Shown here in pieces: positions 1,759 to 59,933 of a DNA stretch of 64,000 nucleotides. The translations under genes were made by a program, and so were the position numbers. Source of the stretch: Candidatus Yanofskybacteria bacterium RIFCSPLOWO2_01_FULL_39_28 (GTDB lineage Bacteria > Patescibacteriota > Minisyncoccia > 2-02-FULL-40-12 > GWA2-44-9); assembly GCA_001794635.1 (NCBI GenBank), contig MGKE01000002.1:13921-77920 (forward strand), given 5' to 3'. Every line of letters starts with the position of its first letter. Position 1 is the stretch's first letter. Under the pieces are notes generated by a model. It worked only from the letters and a program-made list of their open reading frames with translations, was not told the origin of the DNA and ran no database searches.

Positions 1759-3533
1759 TTGTTTCTAAAAGACAAGTTGTTGGATTAGCCATACTTTTTT
1801 CCGCAACAGTTATACTAGCGGTGTTGCCGTTTTGGTATATTGTTCATACTGCCGGCGATTCTTGGCAAGGGATTCTTCCGGCCGGTTACGTTGCTGACAG
1901 CGATTTTTATATACTCCGGATGGTTAAGGGGGCCGACAATTTTCCTTTCGGAAATAATCCGTTCATTATAGAGCAGGCCAAAGATTCAAATCCGGCTTTA
2001 TCTGTCGCCGATTATATCGGATCAATTCCGTATAAAGCCGGATTGAGCATCTTGGGCTCTGTAATTTTTAATGCCATATTTTGGAATCTTGTTTTTGTCT
2101 TCTTGCTTTGGCTACTCTTGAGACAGTTGGGTATAAAAAGCAATTGGTCTTTTTATTTGATTCCGGTGATTTACTTCAATGTGTATGGATCAATGATCCG
2201 ACCGGTTGTAGCTGAAATAGTTTTGCCCTTTTTTGTGTTTTTTCTCTTGATGTTTTTGGTTTGGCTTAAAAAATTCACCAAGCTGAATAGTTTTATTTTT
2301 GCAGTCAGTATTGCTGGTACTTTATATATCTATCCTTATTCGTGGCAGGTTGCTTTTGCGGCTTTGGCGTTTTGTTTTTTGTGGATGTTAAAAAATCAGA
2401 AGTGGTCTGAAGCCAAACTTTTGATTGTAATAATTGGCGGATCTCTGGTTATAGGTTTTCCGGCAGTTTTTTCTATTTATAGCATAACAACTAATCCTTT
2501 ATTTCCTAAATTGCTGGAGTATGTCGGATCTATAAAAACTCATTTGCCTTCGGCACTATCTTTTCAATTGGGACGCTGGATAGTTATAAATTCATTTTTA
2601 TGGTTTATTGCTGTGCGTTTCGTGTCAAAATTAAAAGATGATAAAAACTTTCAGTTTCCCAGGGTTTTTATAATGTCTGTCGGATTCGGTATATTGGCGG
2701 TTTTGATGAGTCCAGTTATAACCGGAAGAGACGGGGCCATTGGCGATCACGTCGGTCGCGAATTATTTTTTTGGCTCTCAATTTCAACAACAACTTTGGC
2801 CTATTTTTTATTTAGCCGTAATGGCTTTTATCAATTAAAATTTTGGAAAAAAGCCGCAATCTTTTTACTTTTAGTTCTTAATTTTATGCCAGTTCTGAAA
2901 CATTCTAAGCGTTCAATTATTCAGCCGTTTAATGCCGATGAAGCCAGGATAGTTGCCGCTCAAGATTATGCCAAACCGATAGAGTGGCTTGATAAGTATG
3001 ACAATAGTCCCAGTGTGGTTTGGGCAGATGGTGATATTAGCAATTATATTCCGACTCATTCTAAATTTTATACATTAGGTTATATAGATGCGATTTATCA
3101 ATATTGGGTTAATAAGTCGGAAATTCAAGAACGCGTCTTATTGTCCATATATTTTCAAGAGATAACTCCAGAGGCGCTTGATAACACAACTCTTACGGGG
3201 AATCGTTATATGCGTCAATTTACTGATTTAGGGTGGAAACTGCGTGTTTGCGGGGTGTTAAATTTTTTAAGGTTTAGTAGTAAATGTTATCCAAAAACAT
3301 CCGGTTTGACTTTTGATGAGCTTGTCTCACAGAAAAATGAAGAACTTCAAAATTTACTAGAAAAAAATAATACCGAAGTCAGGCCATATATCAGCGAACT
3401 GCTTAAAAAATACAACGTTAATTACGCTATCAAAGATCTTGTGGGCGGTAACAAAAATTTTAATATTCAACAATTTAAAAATGCTGAAGAAATATATAAC
3501 GACGGCCGCTTCGTGATCTATGGGTTTAAATAG
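1755..3533 (+). CDS. Polytopic membrane protein with a soluble C-terminal domain; putative GT-C-type glycosyltransferase
   Basis: About 12 hydrophobic segments. An acidic motif, VADSDFYILRM, follows TM1 directly and resembles the first-loop motif of ArnT/PMT/STT3 enzymes. I prefer the ATG at 1755, which makes an ATGA overlap with the upstream stop, over the track start at 1728. Confidence 0.55.
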   Translation: MIVSKRQVVGLAILFSATVILAVLPFWYIVHTAGDSWQGILPAGYVADSDFYILRMVKGADNFPFGNNPFIIEQAKDSNPALSVADYIGSIPYKAGLSILGSVIFNAIFWNLVFVFLLWLLLRQLGIKSNWSFYLIPVIYFNVYGSMIRPVVAEIVLPFFVFFLLMFLVWLKKFTKLNSFIFAVSIAGTLYIYPYSWQVAFAALAFCFLWMLKNQKWSEAKLLIVIIGGSLVIGFPAVFSIYSITTNPLFPKLLEYVGSIKTHLPSALSFQLGRWIVINSFLWFIAVRFVSKLKDDKNFQFPRVFIMSVGFGILAVLMSPVITGRDGAIGDHVGRELFFWLSISTTTLAYFLFSRNGFYQLKFWKKAAIFLLLVLNFMPVLKHSKRSIIQPFNADEARIVAAQDYAKPIEWLDKYDNSPSVVWADGDISNYIPTHSKFYTLGYIDAIYQYWVNKSEIQERVLLSIYFQEITPEALDNTTLTGNRYMRQFTDLGWKLRVCGVLNFLRFSSKCYPKTSGLTFDELVSQKNEELQNLLEKNNTEVRPYISELLKKYNVNYAIKDLVGGNKNFNIQQFKNAEEIYNDGRFVIYGFK

Positions 3534-3602
3534 AGATCTTGTCAGTGCTTAATAATCATGGTATTTATCTCGTATAGACCTTTTAAAATAAGGACGTAAA
3601 TT

Positions 3603-4607
3603 GTGGAGTTTGACCGAAAACGATTGAAGATCTTGCCTCTGGTTGAAAGAGAGAACAAGATGACTTTAGCCGATGTGAAGCGATTAGAAGATTCTATATG
3701 CACAAAAGATCTCAACCCCATTACTAAAATGGACATAGAAATATTAGCCGAACGGCTTATCCAGAGACGCCATCGGGGCCGGCAGGTTATTTGGCTAATG
3801 GGTGCTCATGTCCTGCGTCGGGGCAATTCAAGGTATATAATTGATCTAATGAAACAGGGGTTTCTTACTCATATTGCCTCAAATATGGCAGTTGCTATCC
3901 ACGACTTTGAATTAAGCCATATTGGTGCCACCCTTGAAGATGTTGAATTTTATATCAAAGACGGCCGATTCGGCAACTGGGAAGAGACGGGCCAATATCT
4001 TAACGAAGCTATTTTTACAGGATACAAAGATGGCATTGGTTTGGGCAGGGCGATTGGCCGGATGATAAATTCTTCTAGTAGCCAGGAAATGCCGCATCGG
4101 GAAATCAGTATATTTAACACTGCTTATGAACTTGATATTCCGATCACGGTTCACAAGGGTATCGGCTATGATATTACTGACCAGCATCCGGCTGCTAATT
4201 TTGAAGCAATAGGCAAAACTTCAGGTCTGGATTTTCTTGAGTTTGCTTCTGCCATTTTTCAACTTGAAGATGGCGTGTTCCTCAATCTTGGCTCTTCAGT
4301 TATGGGACCGGAGGTTTATCTTAAAGCATTATCAATGGCTCGCAATGTTGCTGGCCAAGAGGGGAGAGAAATAAAACGCTTTACAACTGCTGTTTTTGAT
4401 ATGGTGTCATTGGGTAATTGGAAAGAAGAACCATCACTGGTTGACTATAAAAAACCGGGGGCCATGTCCGATAGTCGTTATTATTTTCGTCCACTAAAAA
4501 GCGTTCTGGTCAGAACCGTTAAAGACGGCGGCGAAAGTTTTTACATCCAAGGTGACTTTAGTTTAACTGTACCGCTTCTCTGTCAACATTTGAAAGGAGT
4601 GGCATAA
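3603..4607 (+). CDS. Conserved protein with possible deoxyhypusine-synthase-like fold; function unknown
   Basis: GTG start 8 nt after AAGGA. MGAHVLRRGNSRYIIDLMKQGFLTHIASN and the C-terminal GDFSLTVPLL loosely recall DHS-family motifs (SG.R..I..L..., DA.L.FPLL). The assignment is weak. Confidence 0.4.
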   Translation: MEFDRKRLKILPLVERENKMTLADVKRLEDSICTKDLNPITKMDIEILAERLIQRRHRGRQVIWLMGAHVLRRGNSRYIIDLMKQGFLTHIASNMAVAIHDFELSHIGATLEDVEFYIKDGRFGNWEETGQYLNEAIFTGYKDGIGLGRAIGRMINSSSSQEMPHREISIFNTAYELDIPITVHKGIGYDITDQHPAANFEAIGKTSGLDFLEFASAIFQLEDGVFLNLGSSVMGPEVYLKALSMARNVAGQEGREIKRFTTAVFDMVSLGNWKEEPSLVDYKKPGAMSDSRYYFRPLKSVLVRTVKDGGESFYIQGDFSLTVPLLCQHLKGVA

Positions 4608-4611
4608 AAAT

Positions 4612-4655
4612 AAATCCCTCACCAGTTTTTTTAAAAAACTGGTGAGGGATTTTTA
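4612..4655. terminator. Bidirectional intrinsic terminator between convergent genes
   Basis: Perfect 19-bp stem, AAATCCCTCACCAGTTTTT / AAAAACTGGTGAGGGATTT, with a 3-nt loop. A/T runs flank both sides. Confidence 0.8.
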
Positions 4656-4659
4656 AGTT

Positions 4660-5883
4660 CTATATGAAGTTAGCTCTTTTTGGCCGTTTCAAACTTTCTA
4701 AACTAATTATTTCTTGGTTAAATCCCTCATCATTCATACGAGATATTTTGTCCAAATATCCATTTTCTTTATCGGGGTGACAGGTTTTGCGACATTCAGT
4801 AATATCCAGATCATTTAAAACAAATTTGAGGTGTTCTCTCCGACGTTCGCCAAACCAAATTTCTTTTACTGATTGAGTATTAATGTTGCCTAAAGTAAAT
4901 CTTTCGTCGGTCCAATAAGCAGAACAGCTAATCCATTTACCGTCAGACTGAATGTATGACCAAAGGGTCGGTGTTGCTCTGCAAGTGCAATAACCACGTT
5001 CTTCGGCCTCATATTCCTCAAATCGGCTAAAACGGAAAATAACCTCAAAATCATTATGATTATATCTATTCATTAATTCTTTGCCAGTTTCCGTAATTTC
5101 ATTCATTAGATTCCTGTAACTCATGTCACCATAAAGTTTTGCCGTCTCTTGGCTATACAGATGCTGTGAGTAGGGTTTAAACGAAACATAATCCAATCCG
5201 CAGCCAATTGCATACTGAATAAGCTGTTCCATTTCCCGCCAGTTTGTCGGCACGACTGTATTGCCTCGCTGATGATCAATCGTTTCTTTGACTAGAACAG
5301 TCATGTTGGCGCCGATATCGCAGTCTTTAACTCCAAGGCGATGCTTTATTTGAACTGCCTTATCCAAATTATGCCAAATTAAATCCCAATGTTTTGGTGT
5401 TGGTGTTCTGTGGATCTTGGCGTAACTTTCTGAAGTGCCGGCATTGATACTGACCTGAATATAGCCGTTAACCAGTGGGATAATTTCTCTAGCTAGTTTT
5501 TCGGTCAGGCCGGTGCCATTGGTGAGCATGCCGATATCAATTCCAGCTTTTCTTGTTTCAGCAAATATTTTCGCGAGATCTTTATGAAGAGTTGGTTCGC
5601 CTTCGCCGGCATACTGAATGGCTTTAATACCCAACCCATCCGGGTCTTCAACTCTTAACTGCTTCATCTCTCTTAAACGGGCGATAAGCAGGTTTGTATC
5701 TAGCGACCGATTCGGATAACCAAGCATTTCTGGGGCGCAGAATGTGCATCTATGATTACACATTCCCACCGGAGAAATTTCAATATAAACCGGCTGGACA
5801 GAAAAAGGATCCTGTCGCCAGCGTCTTAACCAGGCGGGATGACTAACAATTTTTGGATTTTCAATCCAGTCTTTTCTGTTCAT
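4660..5883 (-). CDS. Radical SAM enzyme with a Cys-rich C-terminal (SPASM/twitch-like) domain
   Basis: CNHRCTFC (CX3CX2C) near the N-terminus. The C-terminal part carries extra cysteines (CTCRATP..., ISCSAYW, ECRKTCHPD). Confidence 0.8.
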   Translation of the reverse strand: MNRKDWIENPKIVSHPAWLRRWRQDPFSVQPVYIEISPVGMCNHRCTFCAPEMLGYPNRSLDTNLLIARLREMKQLRVEDPDGLGIKAIQYAGEGEPTLHKDLAKIFAETRKAGIDIGMLTNGTGLTEKLAREIIPLVNGYIQVSINAGTSESYAKIHRTPTPKHWDLIWHNLDKAVQIKHRLGVKDCDIGANMTVLVKETIDHQRGNTVVPTNWREMEQLIQYAIGCGLDYVSFKPYSQHLYSQETAKLYGDMSYRNLMNEITETGKELMNRYNHNDFEVIFRFSRFEEYEAEERGYCTCRATPTLWSYIQSDGKWISCSAYWTDERFTLGNINTQSVKEIWFGERRREHLKFVLNDLDITECRKTCHPDKENGYLDKISRMNDEGFNQEIISLESLKRPKRANFI

Positions 5884-9298: not shown

Positions 9299-11139
9299 TA
9301 GGACCTGCCATTGGTGGGTAACGCAACCCTTGATCCTTCGATATTAATCTTCCAGAATAGAGTTGACATGGTTTCTAGTACTTCGTTAACGCTCTCCGGT
9401 CTGAATGCTTTTGAACCTTCAACCCGTTTAATTTTCCAAGGTACCTCTAGATAATCAGCGCCGGACTTTATAAGGTAAATTAGTATCTCAGCCATGTAGG
9501 CGAAATTATCGCAACTCATGGGTACAGCTCTAAGATAATCAGTCGGAATGATGCAAATTCCGTTGTAATATCTGATATTCAAGCCAAACAGTTTATTACA
9601 CAGAAGGGTAAATGTCCTGGATGTAGTTTGTCTTTCCGGTGGACGGACTTCCTGATTGGATATATAAGGAATAACAATATCAGCTTTTCCAATATTAGAT
9701 ATGACTTCAGCTACTGAATCTTCGTCAAACTCTCCATCACCAGGGATCATCATCGTATAATATTTTTTAGCTTCGCTTACTCCTTGGCGATACTTGAATC
9801 CTAGTCCGACATAGGCATCATTGTGGATGTGGCGAACATGAGTGTCACTTTGGGCTATGTTAGCCGCAATGTCAGGAGTGCTATCATGTGAATTATCGGG
9901 GCAGAGGTTGGTAATAGCCAAGATTTCGTAGTCAGGTATGTCTGCTTTATTGATTGCCCAAGTGGCACGCTCATAAGCAGAAAGAAGTTTAGTTGCTTCG
10001 TTGTAGGCGGGCATGATTACTGTCAGTGAAACTTGGTCTTTCTTTTTCTTGCTCCTTCTTTTTTTCTTTGAGACTTTATCAGAAACAGTATCTGCTATTG
10101 ACACCATTGCGATAACTTTAGTCGTTATTGAGTTTAGAACTTTAACTACTTTAAAAATATTAAATGCATCTTGAACGCCAGGGCTCCAATCAGCAAGGTG
10201 TCCATTGTCGGAAATTTTAGGTGGACAGAAATGTCTGTCCACCGATTTACCCAGATAAACAATAACTTGATGCAGAACTTGAACTGCATTGCCACTGGCG
10301 AATTGATAAATGGCGTTTAAGTCAGGAGATTCGTTGGGCACGGGGAGAGTAAAGTTTGATTGATTAATTATTTTTTGACCTGAAGCCACTCTTTCTTCCT
10401 TGATGTTTACTCTCCAAAACAGCGAAGCAAGAGAGCCGAATATTCCCAAAGCATCCGCTATGTTTCGGTATCGTTCGAGATTGGTGTTAGATTTTACCGT
10501 ATACGGTAATTCAAGGTAGGATACTCCGGATTTGGCCAAATAAATAGAAGTTTCAGCTAGGCAAGTCGTGTCGCTTGATCGCAGGGGAATTTTCGTAAGA
10601 AGTTCACGTTTGGCAGTTAAGATGCCGGTATAGCTTTTTAGGTTCAAGGCAAACAGAAGGTTGCATAAAAAGGAATAACCCCTAGAGACATAGCGTATTT
10701 CTGAAGATTCGGCGTCTGTATTGCCAGAGTAAGTAAAAATTGCATCTGCTTGGCCCAGATAAAGCATAAGACTGGCAAGAGAGCTTTCTTCTACTGAGCG
10801 GTAAGGGGGGATAACCATTACATAGTCTTTGACTGCCTTATTTATGCCTTGCCGATATTGCAAACCTAATCCGACAAAGACGGGATTATGTATGTGGGCT
10901 ACATTTGGGTCTTCAATAAGTAAGTCTTTTATAACCTGAAGTGTAGCCTCATCACTTTTTCCTTCGGGCGAGGTCTGGCTTACGATCAGGATCTCATATT
11001 CATTAATGTCGGCTATACTTACTGATTTAATAATAGACGTATAAGTTCTTTGCAGGTCTGTTGGTTGTTCAGGGTCAATCGGTAAAATAATTGATAATGA
11101 GTTAGATTTTACAGTCGTTTCTTGTTCAGTCATTTCCAC
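9298..11139 (-). CDS. Tandem-domain GT2 glycosyltransferase; the N-terminal domain is degenerate
   Basis: Two GT-A-like halves joined by a Lys/Arg-rich linker (SKKKRRSKKKKD). The C-terminal half (LTVIMPAYNE...MMIPGDGEFDED) is paralogous to 11608..12336. In the N-terminal half IPPYRSVEE replaces the acidic motif. Confidence 0.75.
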   Translation of the reverse strand: MEMTEQETTVKSNSLSIILPIDPEQPTDLQRTYTSIIKSVSIADINEYEILIVSQTSPEGKSDEATLQVIKDLLIEDPNVAHIHNPVFVGLGLQYRQGINKAVKDYVMVIPPYRSVEESSLASLMLYLGQADAIFTYSGNTDAESSEIRYVSRGYSFLCNLLFALNLKSYTGILTAKRELLTKIPLRSSDTTCLAETSIYLAKSGVSYLELPYTVKSNTNLERYRNIADALGIFGSLASLFWRVNIKEERVASGQKIINQSNFTLPVPNESPDLNAIYQFASGNAVQVLHQVIVYLGKSVDRHFCPPKISDNGHLADWSPGVQDAFNIFKVVKVLNSITTKVIAMVSIADTVSDKVSKKKRRSKKKKDQVSLTVIMPAYNEATKLLSAYERATWAINKADIPDYEILAITNLCPDNSHDSTPDIAANIAQSDTHVRHIHNDAYVGLGFKYRQGVSEAKKYYTMMIPGDGEFDEDSVAEVISNIGKADIVIPYISNQEVRPPERQTTSRTFTLLCNKLFGLNIRYYNGICIIPTDYLRAVPMSCDNFAYMAEILIYLIKSGADYLEVPWKIKRVEGSKAFRPESVNEVLETMSTLFWKINIEGSRVALPTNGRS

Positions 11140-11162
11140 CTCGTTGTCAAATAACTGATGTA

Positions 11163-11191
11163 TTTATACAAGATAATAATGCTCTAGTCAA
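11163..11191 (-). promoter_or_regulatory. Sigma70-like promoter for 9298..11139
   Basis: On the minus strand, TTGACT-N17-TATAAA lies about 25 nt upstream of GAGGTGGAA-ATG. Confidence 0.5.
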
Positions 11192-11205
11192 CCTGATTTT
11201 AAGGG

Positions 11206-11580
11206 CATGGTGTTAATCAAAATCCTCACAAGAGCTTGATTTCTGGGGCACGGCGTAAATTTCTGCTGAAATTTCGCCTTTTACTCGGTTCAGCCAACCT
11301 CCGTAAATCCCCATAAATCAACTCTTATGATGATTTTGTTTTCTGTTGTTAGTATAAATTCAGATAGTCGGCATAGCAGGTATTTTGAGGGATTTTTTAT
11401 TGGGTACAAATGAGTGAAGCCTTTGGCCTATGAGGGGATTTACGGACCGCGACGGCGGGAGTAAAAGATGAAATTTTAGCAAAAATTTACATCGTGCCCC
11501 TCATAGGCTAAGGCTGAACGATTTTATGTCGTGCCCGAAAAATACCTGCTATGCCGACTAGATGGTAATTAGCACCATAC
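11206..11580 (+). repeat. Foldback repeat element, copy 1 (candidate structured ncRNA or MITE)
   Basis: ORF-free. Positions 11209-11335 match 51494-51620 at 125 of 127 positions. Termini pair (GGTGTTAAT / ATTAGCACC), helices are nested, and the 3' half is a diverged inverted copy of the 5' half. Confidence 0.8.
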
Positions 11581-11607
11581 GTTTTTAAGAAACAATTTTT
11601 ATGGCTT

Positions 11608-12336
11608 TTATAGAGGTTTTCTTTTTATTCTTATGTCCCAAAATAATTCTAGAAATGTTAATAGGGCACTGACTATATTGTTGCCTTGAAAAGAATTGGT
11701 TTTTCTATTCGGCTGAGGTCTCAAGGGCATCGGGACTTCAACGTAAGTTTTAGCCAGACCTGATTTGGTGGCTCGGATAATAATGTCGGCGGAATAAACA
11801 AGATTATCTACTTTCATGGGGAGTTTCCGTAGGATATCGGTTTTGTGAAGATTGGTGCCATTATAATGTTTTAGATTTAAGCCGGAAATAAAATTACATA
11901 TTATATTAAATACTTTTGCTATTATTCTTCGTTTCAAGGGCCTAACTTCCGGATTGGATGTGGAGGCAACTATAATATCGGCTTGTCCCATTTTCTCAAG
12001 GACATTAATTATTGCTTGTTCTTCAGTTTCGTTGTCTCCGGGAATCATCATGTAATATTCTCCGCCAGCTTCTTTTGCGCCTTGTTTGTATTTAAAGCCT
12101 AAATTGACACAAGAATCATTGTGTATGTGCCTAATTTTAGAATTTTCTCTGGCCAATTGGGCGGCAATTGCTGGAGTGCCGTCATCTGTGCCGTCAGGTC
12201 TAAGGCAGTCTATAATTAAAATTTCATAGCTGATAACTCCGGTCTTGTTTAAGACCTTTATTATTACGTCAATGGTCGGCCGGATATTTTCCGCTTCCAT
12301 GTAAACCGGCACCATAATCGTAAGTTTAATATCCAC
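11608..12336 (-). CDS. GT2 glycosyltransferase
   Basis: LTIMVPVYMEAENI, ILIIDC...DGTDDGT and MMIPGDNETEEQ. Paralogous to the C-terminal half of 9298..11139. Confidence 0.8.
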   Translation of the reverse strand: MDIKLTIMVPVYMEAENIRPTIDVIIKVLNKTGVISYEILIIDCLRPDGTDDGTPAIAAQLARENSKIRHIHNDSCVNLGFKYKQGAKEAGGEYYMMIPGDNETEEQAIINVLEKMGQADIIVASTSNPEVRPLKRRIIAKVFNIICNFISGLNLKHYNGTNLHKTDILRKLPMKVDNLVYSADIIIRATKSGLAKTYVEVPMPLRPQPNRKTNSFQGNNIVSALLTFLELFWDIRIKRKPL

Positions 12337-26418: not shown

Positions 26419-27510
26419 TTGACACCATTTGATACCATTAAATATATGATACCCAGAAATAACAAAAAAATAAATCCCGTTAGAAGTAGCCGTGCCGCGG
26501 TCCTCCGGACTCGTGTCTCTGGCGTGAGCGAGACTTCTAACGGGATAAAAGTTTTGGTTGTCGGTGGAGCCGGATATATTGGAGGAGCAGTGACAGAACT
26601 TTTGATTGCAAAAAAGATTCCTTTCAGTGTCTACGACGCGCTGGTTTACGAACATCAATACCTTAAGCCGGTTGATTTTATCTATGGCGACATAAGGGAT
26701 TATAAAAAACTCAAACAGGTTTTGCCAAAATACACCCACGTTATTTGGTTGGCTGCTCTTGTCGGCGATCCCGGTTGCCAAATAGATGAATGGATGACAA
26801 GAGCCGTCAATGTAGAACCGATTAAGTGGCTTGTTAAAAATTACAAAGGCCGAATATTGTTTGCTTCAACCTGTTCTGTTTATGGTAAAAGCGACAAAAT
26901 GCTTGATGAGTCGTCGCCCTTGAATCCGCTATCATTTTACGCAAAAAGCAAAATTGAGGCAGAATCATATTTAGTCAAACATCCTAATACCTTAATATAT
27001 CGCATTGGCACTGCTTTTGGTCTTTCGGACAAGCATTCAAGAGTTCGTTTAGACTTGGCAGTAAATATGTTAAGTTTTAAAGCCGTCAATGAAGGCAAAT
27101 TGACTTATTTTGGAGGAACACAGTGGAGACCTTTTATTCACGTTAAAGATATTGCTATGGCCTTTGTGAACGGCATCAATAACAAGGCAAAAGGAATTCA
27201 CAATCTTAATAGAGAAAATATTAGTATTGGGGACTTGGCTAAAAAAATAGGCAAACTGACAAAATGTAAAATACAAGCAACCGAACACCCGTTTCAAGAC
27301 GAGCGTAACTATCATGTCAGCGCAGATAAAGCTAGAAAAGCCGGACTTCTTAAGGGATTGAAATACAACCTAGAGCATGGCATACAAGACATATCGTCAT
27401 TGGCTAGTTTTTCAAGAGTATCACCGGAAGAATCTACGGTTCATTTTAATGATAAGCACTTAGCTGGCTTGATGAAGGATAATAAAAAAATATGGAAAAA
27501 GCGGATTTAA
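26419..27510 (+). CDS. NAD-dependent sugar epimerase/dehydratase with an atypical N-terminal extension containing a palindromic element
   Basis: Rossmann motif VLVVGGAGYIGG, with STCSVYG and YAKSK catalytic motifs. About 40 residues precede the Rossmann strand and include the element at 26474-26546. The true start is uncertain (TTG 26419, ATG 26446 or TTG 26554). Confidence 0.7.
   Translation: MTPFDTIKYMIPRNNKKINPVRSSRAAVLRTRVSGVSETSNGIKVLVVGGAGYIGGAVTELLIAKKIPFSVYDALVYEHQYLKPVDFIYGDIRDYKKLKQVLPKYTHVIWLAALVGDPGCQIDEWMTRAVNVEPIKWLVKNYKGRILFASTCSVYGKSDKMLDESSPLNPLSFYAKSKIEAESYLVKHPNTLIYRIGTAFGLSDKHSRVRLDLAVNMLSFKAVNEGKLTYFGGTQWRPFIHVKDIAMAFVNGINNKAKGIHNLNRENISIGDLAKKIGKLTKCKIQATEHPFQDERNYHVSADKARKAGLLKGLKYNLEHGIQDISSLASFSRVSPEESTVHFNDKHLAGLMKDNKKIWKKRI
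26474..26546 (+). repeat. GC-rich palindromic element, copy A, about 73 nt, read in frame
   Basis: 14-bp outer stem ATCCCGTTAGAAGT / ACTTCTAACGGGAT enclosing two small hairpins (GGTCC-TCC-GGACT; CTCGTGTC-TCT-GGCGTGAG). Homologous to the reverse complement of 34353-34425. Confidence 0.8.
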
Positions 27511-28442: not shown

Positions 28443-28524
28443 CCTAGCCACTAGCCATTAGTGCCTAGCGACTAGTATAATACAAATTTGACCAATTACT
28501 AGTGGCTAGTCGCTAGTGGCTATA
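28443..28524. repeat. CTAG-rich nested inverted repeat
   Basis: TAGCCACTAG and CTAGCGACTAG units pair with CTAGTCGCTAG and CTAGTGGCTA downstream, with 7 CTAG tetramers in about 80 bp. It spans the gap between the GNAT and synthase genes and the last codons of the synthase. Confidence 0.6.
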
Positions 28525-50456: not shown

Positions 50457-51412
50457 TATACATCCCCCTCTTCGGATAAAATTTGGCGGATTTTGTAATA
50501 ATGATTAATTGTTCTTTTTAATCCAGTTTCTAAGTCAGTTTTTGCTTTGAAGCCGAACTCAGTGGCATTAGTAATATCTAAAGATTGACGTAGTTGGCCG
50601 ACCGGTTTAGATGTATCCCAATTGATTGCGCCTTTGTATCCAAGGATTTGGCAGATTGTGTTGGCCAACTCTTTGATGGTCGTTTCTTTGCCAGTTCCTA
50701 TGTTAATTGGTTTTGTCTCATTGTAATTTTCAGTTGCCAGAACTACAGCTTCAGCTGCGTCTTCAACGTAAAGGAATTCGCGACTTGGCGTTCCATCGCC
50801 CCAGACATCTATGTTCTGGCTGTTGGTTTCAAGAGCGTTTACTATCTTAACGATAAGCGCTCCGGTTACATGGGACTTTGTCGGATCAAAGCTGTTTCCT
50901 GGGCCATATAAATTAGAAAGCATAAGGTGAACAGAATTAAAACCGTATTGTTTGCGGTAAGCTTCGCCTTGAACAATAAGCGCTCTTTTAGCTATGGCAT
51001 AAGGCGCATTTAATTCCTCCGGATAGCCATCCCAAAGACTTTGTTCTTTTAATGGCATTGGAGCGTTTTTGGGATATTCGCATATACTGCCAATTATTAC
51101 GAACTTTTTGACTCCGGCTTGGTAAGCAGCTTTCATAAGGTTTATTCCCATGGAAGCGTTATCGTCAAAAATTTCTGCTGAATGGGCAGGATTATGTCCT
51201 ATACCGTAACCATTAACGGCGCAATGTATAACGAAATCATGGTTTGGCATTATTTCTTGGCAAACCTCTAGGCGCCGCAGATCATTGTTTTTAGAACGGG
51301 GGATAGTGATATCTTTTTCCAAAACCCCATGTTTTATTAATCTGTTCTTCACGTGCTGGCCTAAAAATCCAGCTCCGCCGGTTAGTAAAACACGAGCACC
51401 GCTTATGCTCAT
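50456..51412 (-). CDS. GDP-L-fucose synthase / GDP-L-colitose synthase-like epimerase-reductase
   Basis: VLLTGGAGFLG, PYAIAKRAL, SNLYGPGNSFDPTKSHVTGALI and DVWGDGTPSREFLYVEDAA closely follow Fcl motifs. I chose the ATG at 51412 because the track start at 51514 runs into the foldback repeat and crosses the promoter. Confidence 0.75.
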   Translation of the reverse strand: MSISGARVLLTGGAGFLGQHVKNRLIKHGVLEKDITIPRSKNNDLRRLEVCQEIMPNHDFVIHCAVNGYGIGHNPAHSAEIFDDNASMGINLMKAAYQAGVKKFVIIGSICEYPKNAPMPLKEQSLWDGYPEELNAPYAIAKRALIVQGEAYRKQYGFNSVHLMLSNLYGPGNSFDPTKSHVTGALIVKIVNALETNSQNIDVWGDGTPSREFLYVEDAAEAVVLATENYNETKPINIGTGKETTIKELANTICQILGYKGAINWDTSKPVGQLRQSLDITNATEFGFKAKTDLETGLKRTINHYYKIRQILSEEGDV

Positions 51413-51449
51413 AACTAATCCCCTTCTATTTACAAAGAACCTTGGTGAA

Positions 51450-51477
51450 ATTATATATAAAAAACGTGATAAGTCAA
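51450..51477 (-). promoter_or_regulatory. Near-consensus sigma70 promoter for 50456..51412
   Basis: On the minus strand, TTGACT-N16-TATAAT lies about 37 nt upstream of GGGGATTAGTT-ATG. Confidence 0.6.
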
Positions 51478-51490
51478 CCGAATAATCGCG

Positions 51491-51784
51491 CGTGGTGCTA
51501 ATCAAAATCCTCACAAGAGCTTGATTTCTGGGGCACGGCGTAAATTTCTGCTGAAATTTCGCCTTTTACTCGGTTCAGCCAACCTCCGTAAATCCCCATA
51601 AATCAACTCTTATGAGGATTTAGTCTTTACCTGTGTCTATATCAATTAATCTGGTCAGTATAGTAGGTATTTTGAGGGATTTACGGACCGCGACGGCGGG
51701 AGTAAAAGACAAAATTCTAGCAAGAATTTATGTCGTGCCCGAAAAATACCTGCTATGCTGACCAGATGGTAATTAGCACTATAT
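51491..51784 (+). repeat. Foldback repeat element, copy 2 (candidate structured ncRNA or MITE)
   Basis: Positions 51494-51620 match 11209-11335 at 125 of 127 positions. Termini pair (GGTGCTAAT / ATTAGCACT). About 81 nt shorter than copy 1. Confidence 0.8.
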
Positions 51785-51798
51785 GCTACTATCAATTA

Positions 51799-51821
51799 AA
51801 AAGAGCCCAAAGGGCTCTTTT
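51799..51821. terminator. Bidirectional intrinsic terminator at the stop codon of 51820..52755
   Basis: AAAGAGCCC-AAA-GGGCTCTTT with T runs on both strands. Confidence 0.75.
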
Positions 51822-58986: not shown

Positions 58987-59933
58987 ACACGCTCCTTTAT
59001 TGGGGACAAGACATCTTCCCATAAATTTTCAATGTAATGAGCTGTGGAATTTTCAATCATTTCAACTTCTGATTTTAAGCCGAGGAATATCAATTGAGTT
59101 TTAACCAGTTCATATCTGTTCCACTCGGGTGGACCATCGCAACCAGGACCTTCGTGCCAAAGTTCGCGGCAGTAATGAATATTTAAAAACGCCGGAAGCT
59201 TATCCTTTAATTTAGTAACGCAATCCATTATAAACCAAGGGTCGTCAGGCACATCATAAGCCGGCATGCCTTTGGCTTTGGCTTCGTCAGACATGGTCCA
59301 GCTTCGACGAACCTTAACTTCGGTTAAAATAGAAAGGTTATTATCCATGCAAACAAACAATGTCGGAGCTTTTTTACTTGCTGCTTCGCCTAGAGCCCCA
59401 AGGACATAACCTTCTTCTGCGCTGGCATCTCCCATGACGATCAAGGTCTTAAGACCTGAACCAAGGGCATATCCTACGCCGATTTTTACTTGTGTACCCA
59501 TGTGGCCGTCATGACCGAACATGCCAGTTTCGGGAGAATGAATTGATGCTGATCCGCCCATGCCGCCGGCGCAACCGATCGGAAGACCAAGGAGTTCGTC
59601 TCTTAACTTTTCCGGCGAAGCCCCGTAGCAAAGATATAAGTCGTGGCATCTGTGCTGTCCAAAACGTGGAACAAAAGAAGGCCAAGTCATGGTATCCGGG
59701 AAAGACAACGATATAGCCGAGGTGGCAGATTCTTGTCCGAGAGAAAGATAGGTAAAAATTCTGGGTATCTTCTTTCCACTGATTGCTCTTTTGACATTGA
59801 GTTCAAAGTTGCGGCAGAGGCATATTCTACGAAACAGTTCCAGCGATACTTCTTTAGAAAAAGTTTTGGCAAGATCTTTTGGTCCCTTGAATTTGGCTAA
59901 ACGCATTTCAACTCCTTTTAAAACAACTTGCAA
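58983..59933 (-). CDS. Divergent ThDP-enzyme E1 alpha-like subunit
   Basis: ThDP motif MGDASAEEGYVLGALGEAASKKAPTLFVCMDNNLSI. Confidence 0.7.
   Translation of the reverse strand: MQVVLKGVEMRLAKFKGPKDLAKTFSKEVSLELFRRICLCRNFELNVKRAISGKKIPRIFTYLSLGQESATSAISLSFPDTMTWPSFVPRFGQHRCHDLYLCYGASPEKLRDELLGLPIGCAGGMGGSASIHSPETGMFGHDGHMGTQVKIGVGYALGSGLKTLIVMGDASAEEGYVLGALGEAASKKAPTLFVCMDNNLSILTEVKVRRSWTMSDEAKAKGMPAYDVPDDPWFIMDCVTKLKDKLPAFLNIHYCRELWHEGPGCDGPPEWNRYELVKTQLIFLGLKSEVEMIENSTAHYIENLWEDVLSPIKERV

Follow-up and report, generated by a model that had tools for sequence, protein, structure and literature searches.

The 64,000-nt stretch of contig MGKE01000002.1 from Candidatus Yanofskybacteria bacterium RIFCSPLOWO2_01_FULL_39_28 that is analysed here (as a whole, the window) contains two long foldback elements, copy 1 and copy 2, which belong to a multi-copy repeat, not catalogued before, that occurs in Candidatus Yanofskybacteria and related Parcubacteria. 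An original prediction made from the letters of the window had treated the 375-bp copy 1 as the unit and had described it as either a structured non-coding RNA or a MITE (a miniature transposable element with inverted repeats). The conserved and covarying unit is instead a three-way-junction core of 65–66 nt, four of which are present in the window. Cores are copied to new genomic sites, where they come to lie at the tip of a long hairpin next to a gene boundary; they also nest within older copies of the same unit, and close relatives differ by their gain or loss. We lean towards reading the core as a repeat family that is non-autonomous, depends on its structure and reaches the tips of gene-boundary hairpins by copying. 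The evidence thus tilts the earlier alternative towards a mobile repeat, though not an ordinary MITE, and the functional-RNA reading survives.

The core is composed of GGGATTTACGGA, a first hairpin (hp1), GAGTAAAAG, a second hairpin (hp2) and the end CGTGCCC. Its basal stem P1 is GGG/CCC, and stem P2 (UUUAC/GUAAA) encloses hp1, whose 4 bp are capped by a GACNG loop; hp2 has 11 bp, a bulged A and a loop of the AGCA type, and about 20 conserved nucleotides of the junction are unpaired. A 21-base exact pattern of the core matches four times in the window, against 0 matches expected. A covariance model built from 18 cores and run over the window with filters off returned the four cores, all of them within the two elements. 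It also returned a 19.4-bit match at 59247–59314 (−), which lies within a coding region, has many of its pairs broken and is probably due to chance.

Covariation, which the original prediction had claimed, became strong with the addition of homologues. Across 29 distinct cores, 98.4% of the pair cells are standard and 13 of the 23 pairs have changed on both sides; the covarying pairs include all four of hp1 and eight of the 11 of hp2. Double-change cells number 106 compared with 33.5 in shuffles, none of 500 shuffles reached the observed values, and sliding the partner columns lets pairing fall to 40–56%. The conservation of GGGATTTACGGA and GAGTAAAAG is partly set by the search, as both were fixed by the search pattern; the cores found without the pattern (L034, both cores of L035, and L002:1157) keep the two segments entirely or nearly so, and the second core of L028 and that of L032 have a few changes in them. 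The long helices enclosing the cores are mostly locus-specific, and those around the cores of the window covary with their counterparts in L028.

Within the densely packed window (38.6% G+C), the two elements fill the only large gaps free of open reading frames (ORFs), as originally described: just two gaps between ORFs of at least 120 aa exceed 400 nt (11133–11608 and 51412–51820). The proteins of the window are identical to those of Candidatus Yanofskybacteria metagenome-assembled genomes (MAGs) from the Rifle aquifer. The reported near-identity of the first 127 nt was reproduced exactly, 11209–11335 and 51494–51620 differing at two positions (11213 T/C and 11331 T/G) at otherwise unrelated loci, and a direct-repeat search showed that copies 1 and 2 share 138 nt with 96% identity. 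On the + strand, copy 1 folds with −159.9 kcal/mol compared with −92 ± 5 for dinucleotide shuffles, and copy 2 with −126.2 compared with −67 ± 4.5 (z about −13 for both; less extreme on the reverse strands, Table 1). These predicted folds contain every nested helix that had been listed. Each element consists of two cores placed back to back in opposite orientations, so that they point outward, one toward each neighbouring gene. The 3′ domain is an inverted and diverged form of the 5′ domain, as proposed, with arms of 42–48 nt that are 79–86% complementary.

Two of the finer structural claims held in part. For the closing helix of the 3′ domain, a compensatory change between the copies had been suggested; one double change (G–C to A–U) is present, but two further changes are C to T and leave U·G wobbles on the + strand of copy 2. 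The 81 extra nt of copy 1 are indeed absent from copy 2, but they amount to more than an added helix: a stem bearing a second, intact core (core B) has taken the place of a core's interior, and of the outer core the ends alone remain, GGGATTT at 11389–11395 and ATTTTATGTCGTGCCC at 11521–11536. The latter matches the 3′ half of hp2 and the end of core D in copy 2. Comparison with homologues shows that the 5′ domain is the best-conserved part of the element, most aligned columns being identical in L028, where the 5′-domain helix has CAG/CTG in place of CAC/ATG. The core of L017 is that of core B with hp1 changed from CCGC/GCGG to CCAC/GTGG.

In a collection of species-representative genomes, the core pattern was found in 22 stretches, 17 of them in the Yanofskybacteria MAG MGJK01; a second Yanofskybacteria MAG and a Paceibacterota MAG account for the others, together with three short contigs that had been binned elsewhere. 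L004, L005 and L020 were rejected as chance matches to the pattern because the rest of the core is missing. Scanning metagenomes with the hp1 variant of the window, a subfamily-specific pattern, returned two loci. L027 is a solitary core, and L028 is a whole two-domain element with 81% identity that lies between pnp and a znuB-like gene, in another species and another context than the window, and has the same orientation relative to its neighbour genes. The possibility, raised with the original prediction, that only the two window copies exist is contradicted by at least 17 sites in another genome and by this recurrence of the two-domain element. The core-bearing contigs L007, L009 and L017 are labelled Saccharibacteria or Gammaproteobacteria; they are short and probably mis-binned. 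MreB of the "Saccharibacteria" contig L017, the one such record tested, is 94% identical to Yanofskybacteria MreB, and the idea of a cross-phylum spread was accordingly withdrawn.

Nothing resembling the family was found in the databases and literature searched. At gathering score, Rfam 15 has 0 matches on the whole window and none overlapping the elements in 20 related loci, in agreement with the earlier statement that no named RNA family could be recognised, and with E up to 10 the element obtains chance-level matches to snoRNAs or small RNAs (sRNAs) alone, at 10–22 bits. The core pattern finds nothing in IMG/VR, and BLASTN with copy 1 finds nothing among phage and plasmid records. A literature search on the core sequence gave nothing relevant (STAT3 oligonucleotides only), and in the literature on repeats or RNA motifs of candidate phyla radiation (CPR) bacteria no description of the element was found.

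The cores lie beside housekeeping genes (encoding RecA, MreB, UvrB, RuvA, ThrRS, MiaA, a Mur ligase and FemAB) with no consistent gene association among the loci. The window elements are adjoined by genes for glycosyltransferases, radical-SAM enzymes and epimerases. The earlier observation that no transposase, reverse transcriptase (RT) or nuclease gene accompanies them was borne out, and it extends to the other core loci examined. Most cores are found 16–162 nt past a stop codon, and a minority 9–110 nt before a start codon in sense orientation; in L034 and L035, a glycosyltransferase gene has a core between its −10 box and its ATG. Calling the reading that begins GGGATTT the G frame, the nearer gene is on the 3′ side of the G frame in all 21 solitary cores that have ORFs on both sides, whether the boundary is a stop or a start codon. 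Neither strand, inside or beside the elements, has a convincing promoter for an independent transcript. Canonical intrinsic terminators were considered and rejected, as there is no U tract and the scanner calls none at the elements: in neither frame is U enriched after the outermost stems, the next 12 nt containing 3.1–4.3 T with about 4 expected.

Copying and turnover can be followed between and within genomes. In MGJK01, subfamilies are recognisable by hp1, hp2 and stem variants common to 3–5 loci each. Downstream of recA, four related species differ, with a four-level nest in L012, a variant core with an extra arm in L032, no core in L031 and a plain terminator in L033. Among genomes whose MreB is at least 92% identical, L035 has a core both after mreB and before the GT4 gene, L034 has one before GT4 but none after mreB, and L036 and L038 have none at either position; L017 has a core after mreB, while on this short contig the next gene differs. 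L038 retains the same outer scaffold with a different GC-rich apex. At the window loci themselves no strain-level empty site was found, six other assemblies being identical to copy 1 there, three of which break inside the element. With many copies and variable presence between strains, part of what would mark an ordinary MITE is seen, but no target-site duplications were found and terminal inverted repeats do not appear to be conserved.

Nesting reaches four levels in MGJK01 (for example L001 2620–2940), and the innermost core alone is intact. Each outer shell keeps the core ends GGGATTTRCG and TTTATGNCGTGCC and has lost the 5′ half of hp2, and the position of its hp1 carries a stem bearing the next unit. 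Copy 1 of the window has one such shell, and L017 shows the same two-level arrangement. The hp2 loops of three cores (L009 1545–1590, L016 2110–2160 and L018 4535–4570) contain extra GC-rich palindromes that are perfect or nearly so, such as CCTGCCTGCCGGCAGGCAGG, and hairpin loops and tips thus seem to be insertion hot spots and growth points in these genomes.

The arms that carry the cores are informative about their origin. In L035, a perfect 26-bp inverted repeat surrounds the core after mreB; its gene-side arm (AGCAAAGAGATAACAGAAACAATTTT) comprises the last three codons of mreB, the stop codon and 13 nt of flank. Conservation of the protein end (NVVAKR) among relatives marks the gene-side arm as the original and the far arm as its inverted copy. 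In L017 the outermost arms likewise take in the end of its own mreB (19 of 21 matches), and in L027 they begin at the stop codon (22 of 23 matches). The relatives lacking a core after mreB (L034, L036 and L038) have no hairpin at that position, which, together with the perfect repeat of L035, favours arms that were made together with the insertion.

The folded strand is not interchangeable with its complement. In 28 of 28 cores the G frame gives the more stable fold, on average by 9.7 kcal/mol when 30-nt flanks are included. Read in this frame, the enclosing helices have transition mismatches of the G·U type in 26 cases and of the A·C type in 4, some of these cases being of common ancestry. 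Helix junctions often have UGAA/UGAA or CGAAG/CGAAG, giving tandem G·A pairs in the G frame only. Mutation bias was rejected as the source of the wobble asymmetry: the skew at four-fold sites gives just about 1.3-fold transition asymmetry, so that selection on a single-stranded form is the simpler explanation. At the four-fold sites of all long window ORFs, the sense strand is pyrimidine-rich, with (G−C)/(G+C) of −0.28 and (A−T)/(A+T) of −0.15, and this G-versus-C skew is the opposite of the usual leading-strand pattern.

How the core would spread can be outlined from these features. As the element encodes no enzyme, it would be non-autonomous, and copying would act on a single strand that must fold, since the stems covary and wobble pairs are tolerated on one strand only. 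The core could be inserted into the loop of an existing hairpin. Alternatively, a template switch might copy the core and snap back on the nascent strand or flank, so that the flank would be duplicated in inverted form; as an origin of perfect inverted repeats in bacteria, template switching has support (PMC5941160). By either route, arms would be locus-specific and cores conserved, and new cores would come to nest in hairpins that carry older ones. Each window element is an inverted doublet of two units, one pointing at each neighbouring gene, and this doublet would have moved or been duplicated as a block. For the host the consequences are probably slight, those of a strong hairpin parked between transcription units.

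Several observations weigh against a repeat that is simply copied to hairpin tips. The covariance model detects no decayed cores in 207 kb, 31 of 32 matches scoring 72–96 bits and the sole lower one being an insertion variant with 46 bits; a purely selfish repeat should leave wrecks, and their absence suggests purifying selection, or fast turnover combined with homogenisation. The wobble bias also affects arms that occur at a single locus each (L002, window copy 2 and L028), for which selection on the mobile unit alone is no explanation. Inverted flank duplication rests on one clean and two partial cases, and long hairpins without a core overlap gene ends in L016 and in the window (51798–51821 and also 4612–4652), so that insertion into the loop of an already existing hairpin has to be kept in mind. 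In MGJK01 two types of shell alternate regularly, which simple random self-insertion does not predict. None of the three composite copies (copy 1, copy 2 and L028) has a direct target-site duplication: the GCGAAG/TGAA direct repeats flanking stems are conserved parts of the element that form symmetric G·A loops, and the flank duplicate of L035 is inverted, not direct. The terminal helix of the original prediction, GGTGYTAAT/ATTAGCAC, is present in the window but comprises just 8–11 bp and is not kept in the homologous L028, and solitary cores have locus-specific arms in place of terminal repeats. Finally, no gene for a trans-acting enzyme was found beside the cores at the loci examined.

The missing wrecks, the strand preference and the conserved junction support a different reading, in which the strand GGGAUUUACGG…CGUGCCC is a functional structured RNA (an sRNA, a protein-binding module or a small self-cleaving ribozyme) and the nested multi-copy spread is secondary. 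The about 20 conserved unpaired junction nucleotides, kept also in the cores found without the pattern, the 13 double-changed pairs unmatched by any shuffle, the consistently better folding of the same strand and the 26 to 4 excess of G·U-type mismatches, which includes single-locus arms and faces just a 1.3-fold mutational asymmetry, are all in line with it. In L034 and L035, moreover, this strand should be transcribed because it lies between the −10 box and the ATG, and small ribozymes typically have a size and architecture like those of the core. The setting of most copies is harder to reconcile with such a role. In the first 22 loci, 12 solitary cores lie between co-directional genes, and 11 of them have the antisense orientation relative to these genes, L034 adding a second sense-oriented case, so that read-through mRNA would carry the weaker-folding version, in conflict with the strand preference. 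No convincing promoter precedes the cores, no U enrichment follows the outer stems in either frame, and each window element has one core per orientation. Presence varies among close relatives beside housekeeping genes, nesting in degenerate copies is unusual for RNA genes, and no Rfam family, ribozymes included, matches at E up to 10 beyond the chance-level hits described above. Taken together, we regard a functional RNA as a serious but doubtful explanation. Even less is expected of a guide-RNA array or the RNA part of a defence or transposon system (TIGR array, CRISPR, omega or bridge RNA, retron non-coding RNA), which we consider highly improbable. TIGR-Tas systems do occur in CPR bacteria and have hairpin units with box C/D-like motifs (PMC12045711), the helices adjacent to the cores often have the tandem G·A motifs, and the sole near-matches in Rfam are C/D snoRNAs with E of about 1. 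A TIGR array, however, consists of tandem repeat-spacer units adjoining a Tas (Nop-domain) gene (PMC12045711), whereas the copies here are dispersed singly or nested, with neither a tandem array nor variable unpaired spacers, and this architecture and the neighbours (glycosyltransferases, epimerases and housekeeping genes) were grounds for rejecting it. None of the 32 cores has a Tas, Cas, TnpB, IS110 or RT gene beside it, and the Rfam models of omega, HEARO, retron-type and CRISPR repeat RNAs do not match. Integron attC sites were likewise rejected on reading the ends, as GTTAATC does not fit GTTRRRY and nesting is not expected of them.

The position of the cores invites a third interpretation, namely that they are cis-acting boundary devices of the host (terminators, insulators or RNase III sites), as proposed for repetitive extragenic palindromes (REPs) and bacterial interspersed mosaic elements (BIMEs), and are retained by the host whatever their origin. 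This fits the cores that follow an upstream stop codon by 16–162 nt, often with the outermost arm starting at the stop, as well as the ordinary terminator that L033 has where L012 and L032 carry the element. It fits, too, the closeness of the 3′-side gene of the better-folding frame in 21 of 21 solitary cores and the outward-pointing composite units, copy 2 being placed between a terminator-like hairpin and a promoter match with 11 of 12 positions. Yet with 3.7 and 4.3 T per 12 nt in the two frames, compared with about 4 expected, the elements are not canonical intrinsic terminators, and a separate terminator-like hairpin of canonical form already follows the upstream gene in L016 and window copy 2. 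A terminator between the −10 box and the ATG would silence the gene in L034 and L035, and relatives do without the element at the same loci. We hold boundary function as the explanation of the family to be unlikely, although it may coexist with either a mobile repeat or a functional RNA. Mobile, structure-dependent copying to hairpin tips is the account that we prefer. It is possible, and we propose it tentatively, that the family represents an undescribed class of CPR elements: a 65-nt single-strand module, as RNA or single-stranded DNA (ssDNA), that spreads to the tips of gene-boundary hairpins, duplicates the target flank in inverted and not direct form and is kept intact by selection. Such selection might act because the folded strand is catalytic or because its structure is recognised by an enzyme of the host or the element.

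Compared with known systems, the repeat works like REP doublets forming hairpins (REPINs) or MITEs and yet fails both definitions: it lacks a GTAG/CGTC tag, no direct duplication of the target was found, and its terminal repeats do not appear to be conserved. Like REPINs and REP/BIME sequences, it is short, non-coding, multi-copy and intergenic at gene 3′ ends, and it often forms an inverted doublet that folds into a long hairpin, with more complex arrangements in both. Two inverted cores with covarying arms are present in each window element and in L028. The REP or REPIN unit is a 20–40 nt imperfect palindrome with a GTAG or CGTC tag at one end (PMC3733652). By contrast, the unit here is a 65-nt three-way junction instead of a simple palindrome; its ends are GGGATTTACGG and CGTGCCC, without GTAG, and CGTC occurs in a few hp2 variants only. 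REPINs are mobilised by RAYT tyrosine transposases, and no RAYT was identified in the 64-kb window or the 8-kb loci. Differently from REPINs, the cores sit at the apex of locus-specific arms and nest regularly up to four levels.

With MITEs such as Correia elements and cyanobacterial Nezha, the elements share that they are non-autonomous, a few hundred bp long, foldback-forming, intergenic and strain-variable, and that they break assemblies. They differ from MITEs in that neither conserved terminal inverted repeats nor a direct target-site duplication was found, in that no core has a related transposase beside it, and in that the conserved part is the centre (apex) and not the ends. The insertion sequences (ISs) IS1397 and ISKpn1 target REP loops, and class C group II introns insert after terminators; they share the preference for the apex or neighbourhood of existing gene-end palindromes, but they encode their own enzyme and are kilobases long, while the core has 65 nt and encodes nothing. 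Parvoviruses have T-shaped terminal hairpins, an ssDNA structure that is read by an HUH nuclease. The likeness is one of shape only, with two small hairpin arms atop a long stem; the elements here are chromosomal, internal and dispersed, and neither a Rep gene nor sequence similarity is apparent. Palindrome-associated elements derived from IS200/IS605 have subterminal hairpins that resemble each other at the two ends, a short motif for cleavage (TTAC, for instance) and TnpA encoded in the genome; the core contains TTAC at three places, all within the paired P2 and hp2, and its two hairpins are unlike each other. Template switching, or quasipalindrome mutagenesis (PMC5941160), would account for perfect flank-derived arms and for apparent compensation without an RNA function, but leaves the arrival of the core at the apex and the one-strand wobble bias unexplained.

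The features of both window elements and of their immediate surroundings are collected in Table 1.

Table 1. Features of the two composite elements and adjoining sites in the window (positions are those of the 64,000-nt stretch)
Feature	Position	Strand	Remarks
Copy 1 composite	11206–11580		Two cores back to back and one nested shell; z −13.2 (+), −11.7 (−)
Terminal helix, 5′ arm GGTGTTAAT	11209–11217		Pairs with 11568–11576 in predicted fold
5′ domain	11221–11335	−	25-bp outer helix (11221–11245 with 11312–11335) around core A
Core A	11246–11311	−	Reads GGGATTTACGGA..CGTGCCC on − strand; covariance model 92.0 bits, E 1.6e-25; pattern match
Interdomain spacer	11336–11364		Poorly conserved (alignment of copy 1, copy 2 and L028)
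3′-domain outer helix, 5′ arm	11365–11391	+	Pairs with 11534–11560; 27-nt arms, 93% complementary
Shell, 5′ half	11389–11434	+	Remnant core start GGGATTT, spacer, GAGTGAAGCC, stem GGCCTATGAG; missing from copy 2
Core B, intact, nested in shell	11435–11499	+	Covariance model 91.9 bits
Shell, 3′ half	11500–11536	+	Stem CTCATAGGCT, then GGCTGAACG, then remnant core end ATTTTATGTCGTGCCC
3′-domain outer helix, 3′ arm	11534–11560	+	Pairs with 11365–11391
Terminal helix, 3′ arm ATTAGCACC	11568–11576		Predicted fold
Copy 2 composite	51491–51784		Two cores, no nested shell; z −13.1 (+), −9.7 (−)
Core C	51531–51596	−	Identical to core A; covariance model 92.0 bits
Copy 2, 3′-domain outer helix, 5′ arm	51649–51678	+	Pairs with 51738–51767; 30-nt arms, 87% complementary
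Core D	51676–51740	+	Covariance model 91.0 bits
Promoter-like TTGACT-17-TATAAA	11163–11191	−	By eye; serves downstream glycosyltransferase gene, just outside copy 1
Promoter-like TTGACT-16-TATAAT	51450–51477	−	11/12 matches; between copy 2 and GDP-fucose synthase gene
Hairpin AAAAAGAGCCC-AAA-GGGCTCTTTT	51798–51821		By eye, not scanner-called; overlaps stop codon of upstream (−) epimerase gene

The promoter-like site beside copy 1 is not listed by the scanner, and its second hexamer ends in A. The sequence GGTTGACT on the − strand (11186–11193 and 51470–51477) lies 14–15 nt beyond the end of each element and is the −35 of the promoter-like sites; it is either part of the element or a common promoter feature. 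The hairpin at 51798–51821 is terminator-like in both directions.

Further palindromic structures were seen in the window and at related loci. Between convergent genes at 4612–4652 there is a perfect 20-bp hairpin with a 1-nt loop, the arms of which contain GAGGGATTT/AAATCCCTC, the start motif of the core; it is probably a bidirectional terminator. A hairpin at 26461–26559, which is not a core, has 27-nt arms (81% complementary) and a 45-nt GC-rich apex. It is situated just upstream of an epimerase gene's probable true start (about 26545) and may be a second kind of hairpin-tip module, like the apex of L038 at about 3010–3110. At 28444–28522, a cluster of palindromic repeats of the CTAGCCACTAG type fills the 66-nt gap between two − strand genes. 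In L012, the nested element downstream of recA is followed by a 1.1-kb ORF-poor stretch (4070–5180) with two direct repeats of about 47 nt (cctcgcgaaattaaYcctgagcta..gtcgaag..ctaatttcg), which has no Rfam match with E up to 0.001. L031 has a second recA 3′ end (3600–3655, encoding EKEIVSKIKEAAVLEA and a stop) about 90 nt past the real stop codon, followed by about 1.6 kb without called genes; it resembles a scar left behind when an element integrated at the recA end.

The genomes of the ultra-small CPR bacteria are very small (about 1 Mb) and leave little DNA to spare, which makes a repeat occupying the only large gaps in 64 kb noteworthy, and to our knowledge few mobile elements or non-coding RNAs are known in these bacteria. 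Either the element is a compact parasite that spreads in an unusual manner, or it is an uncatalogued functional RNA or ssDNA structure. In practical terms, it breaks metagenome assemblies of these organisms and is a marker of recent genome change between close strains. If the arms do come from the target flank at insertion, the family would provide a mechanism by which hairpins are born at gene ends.

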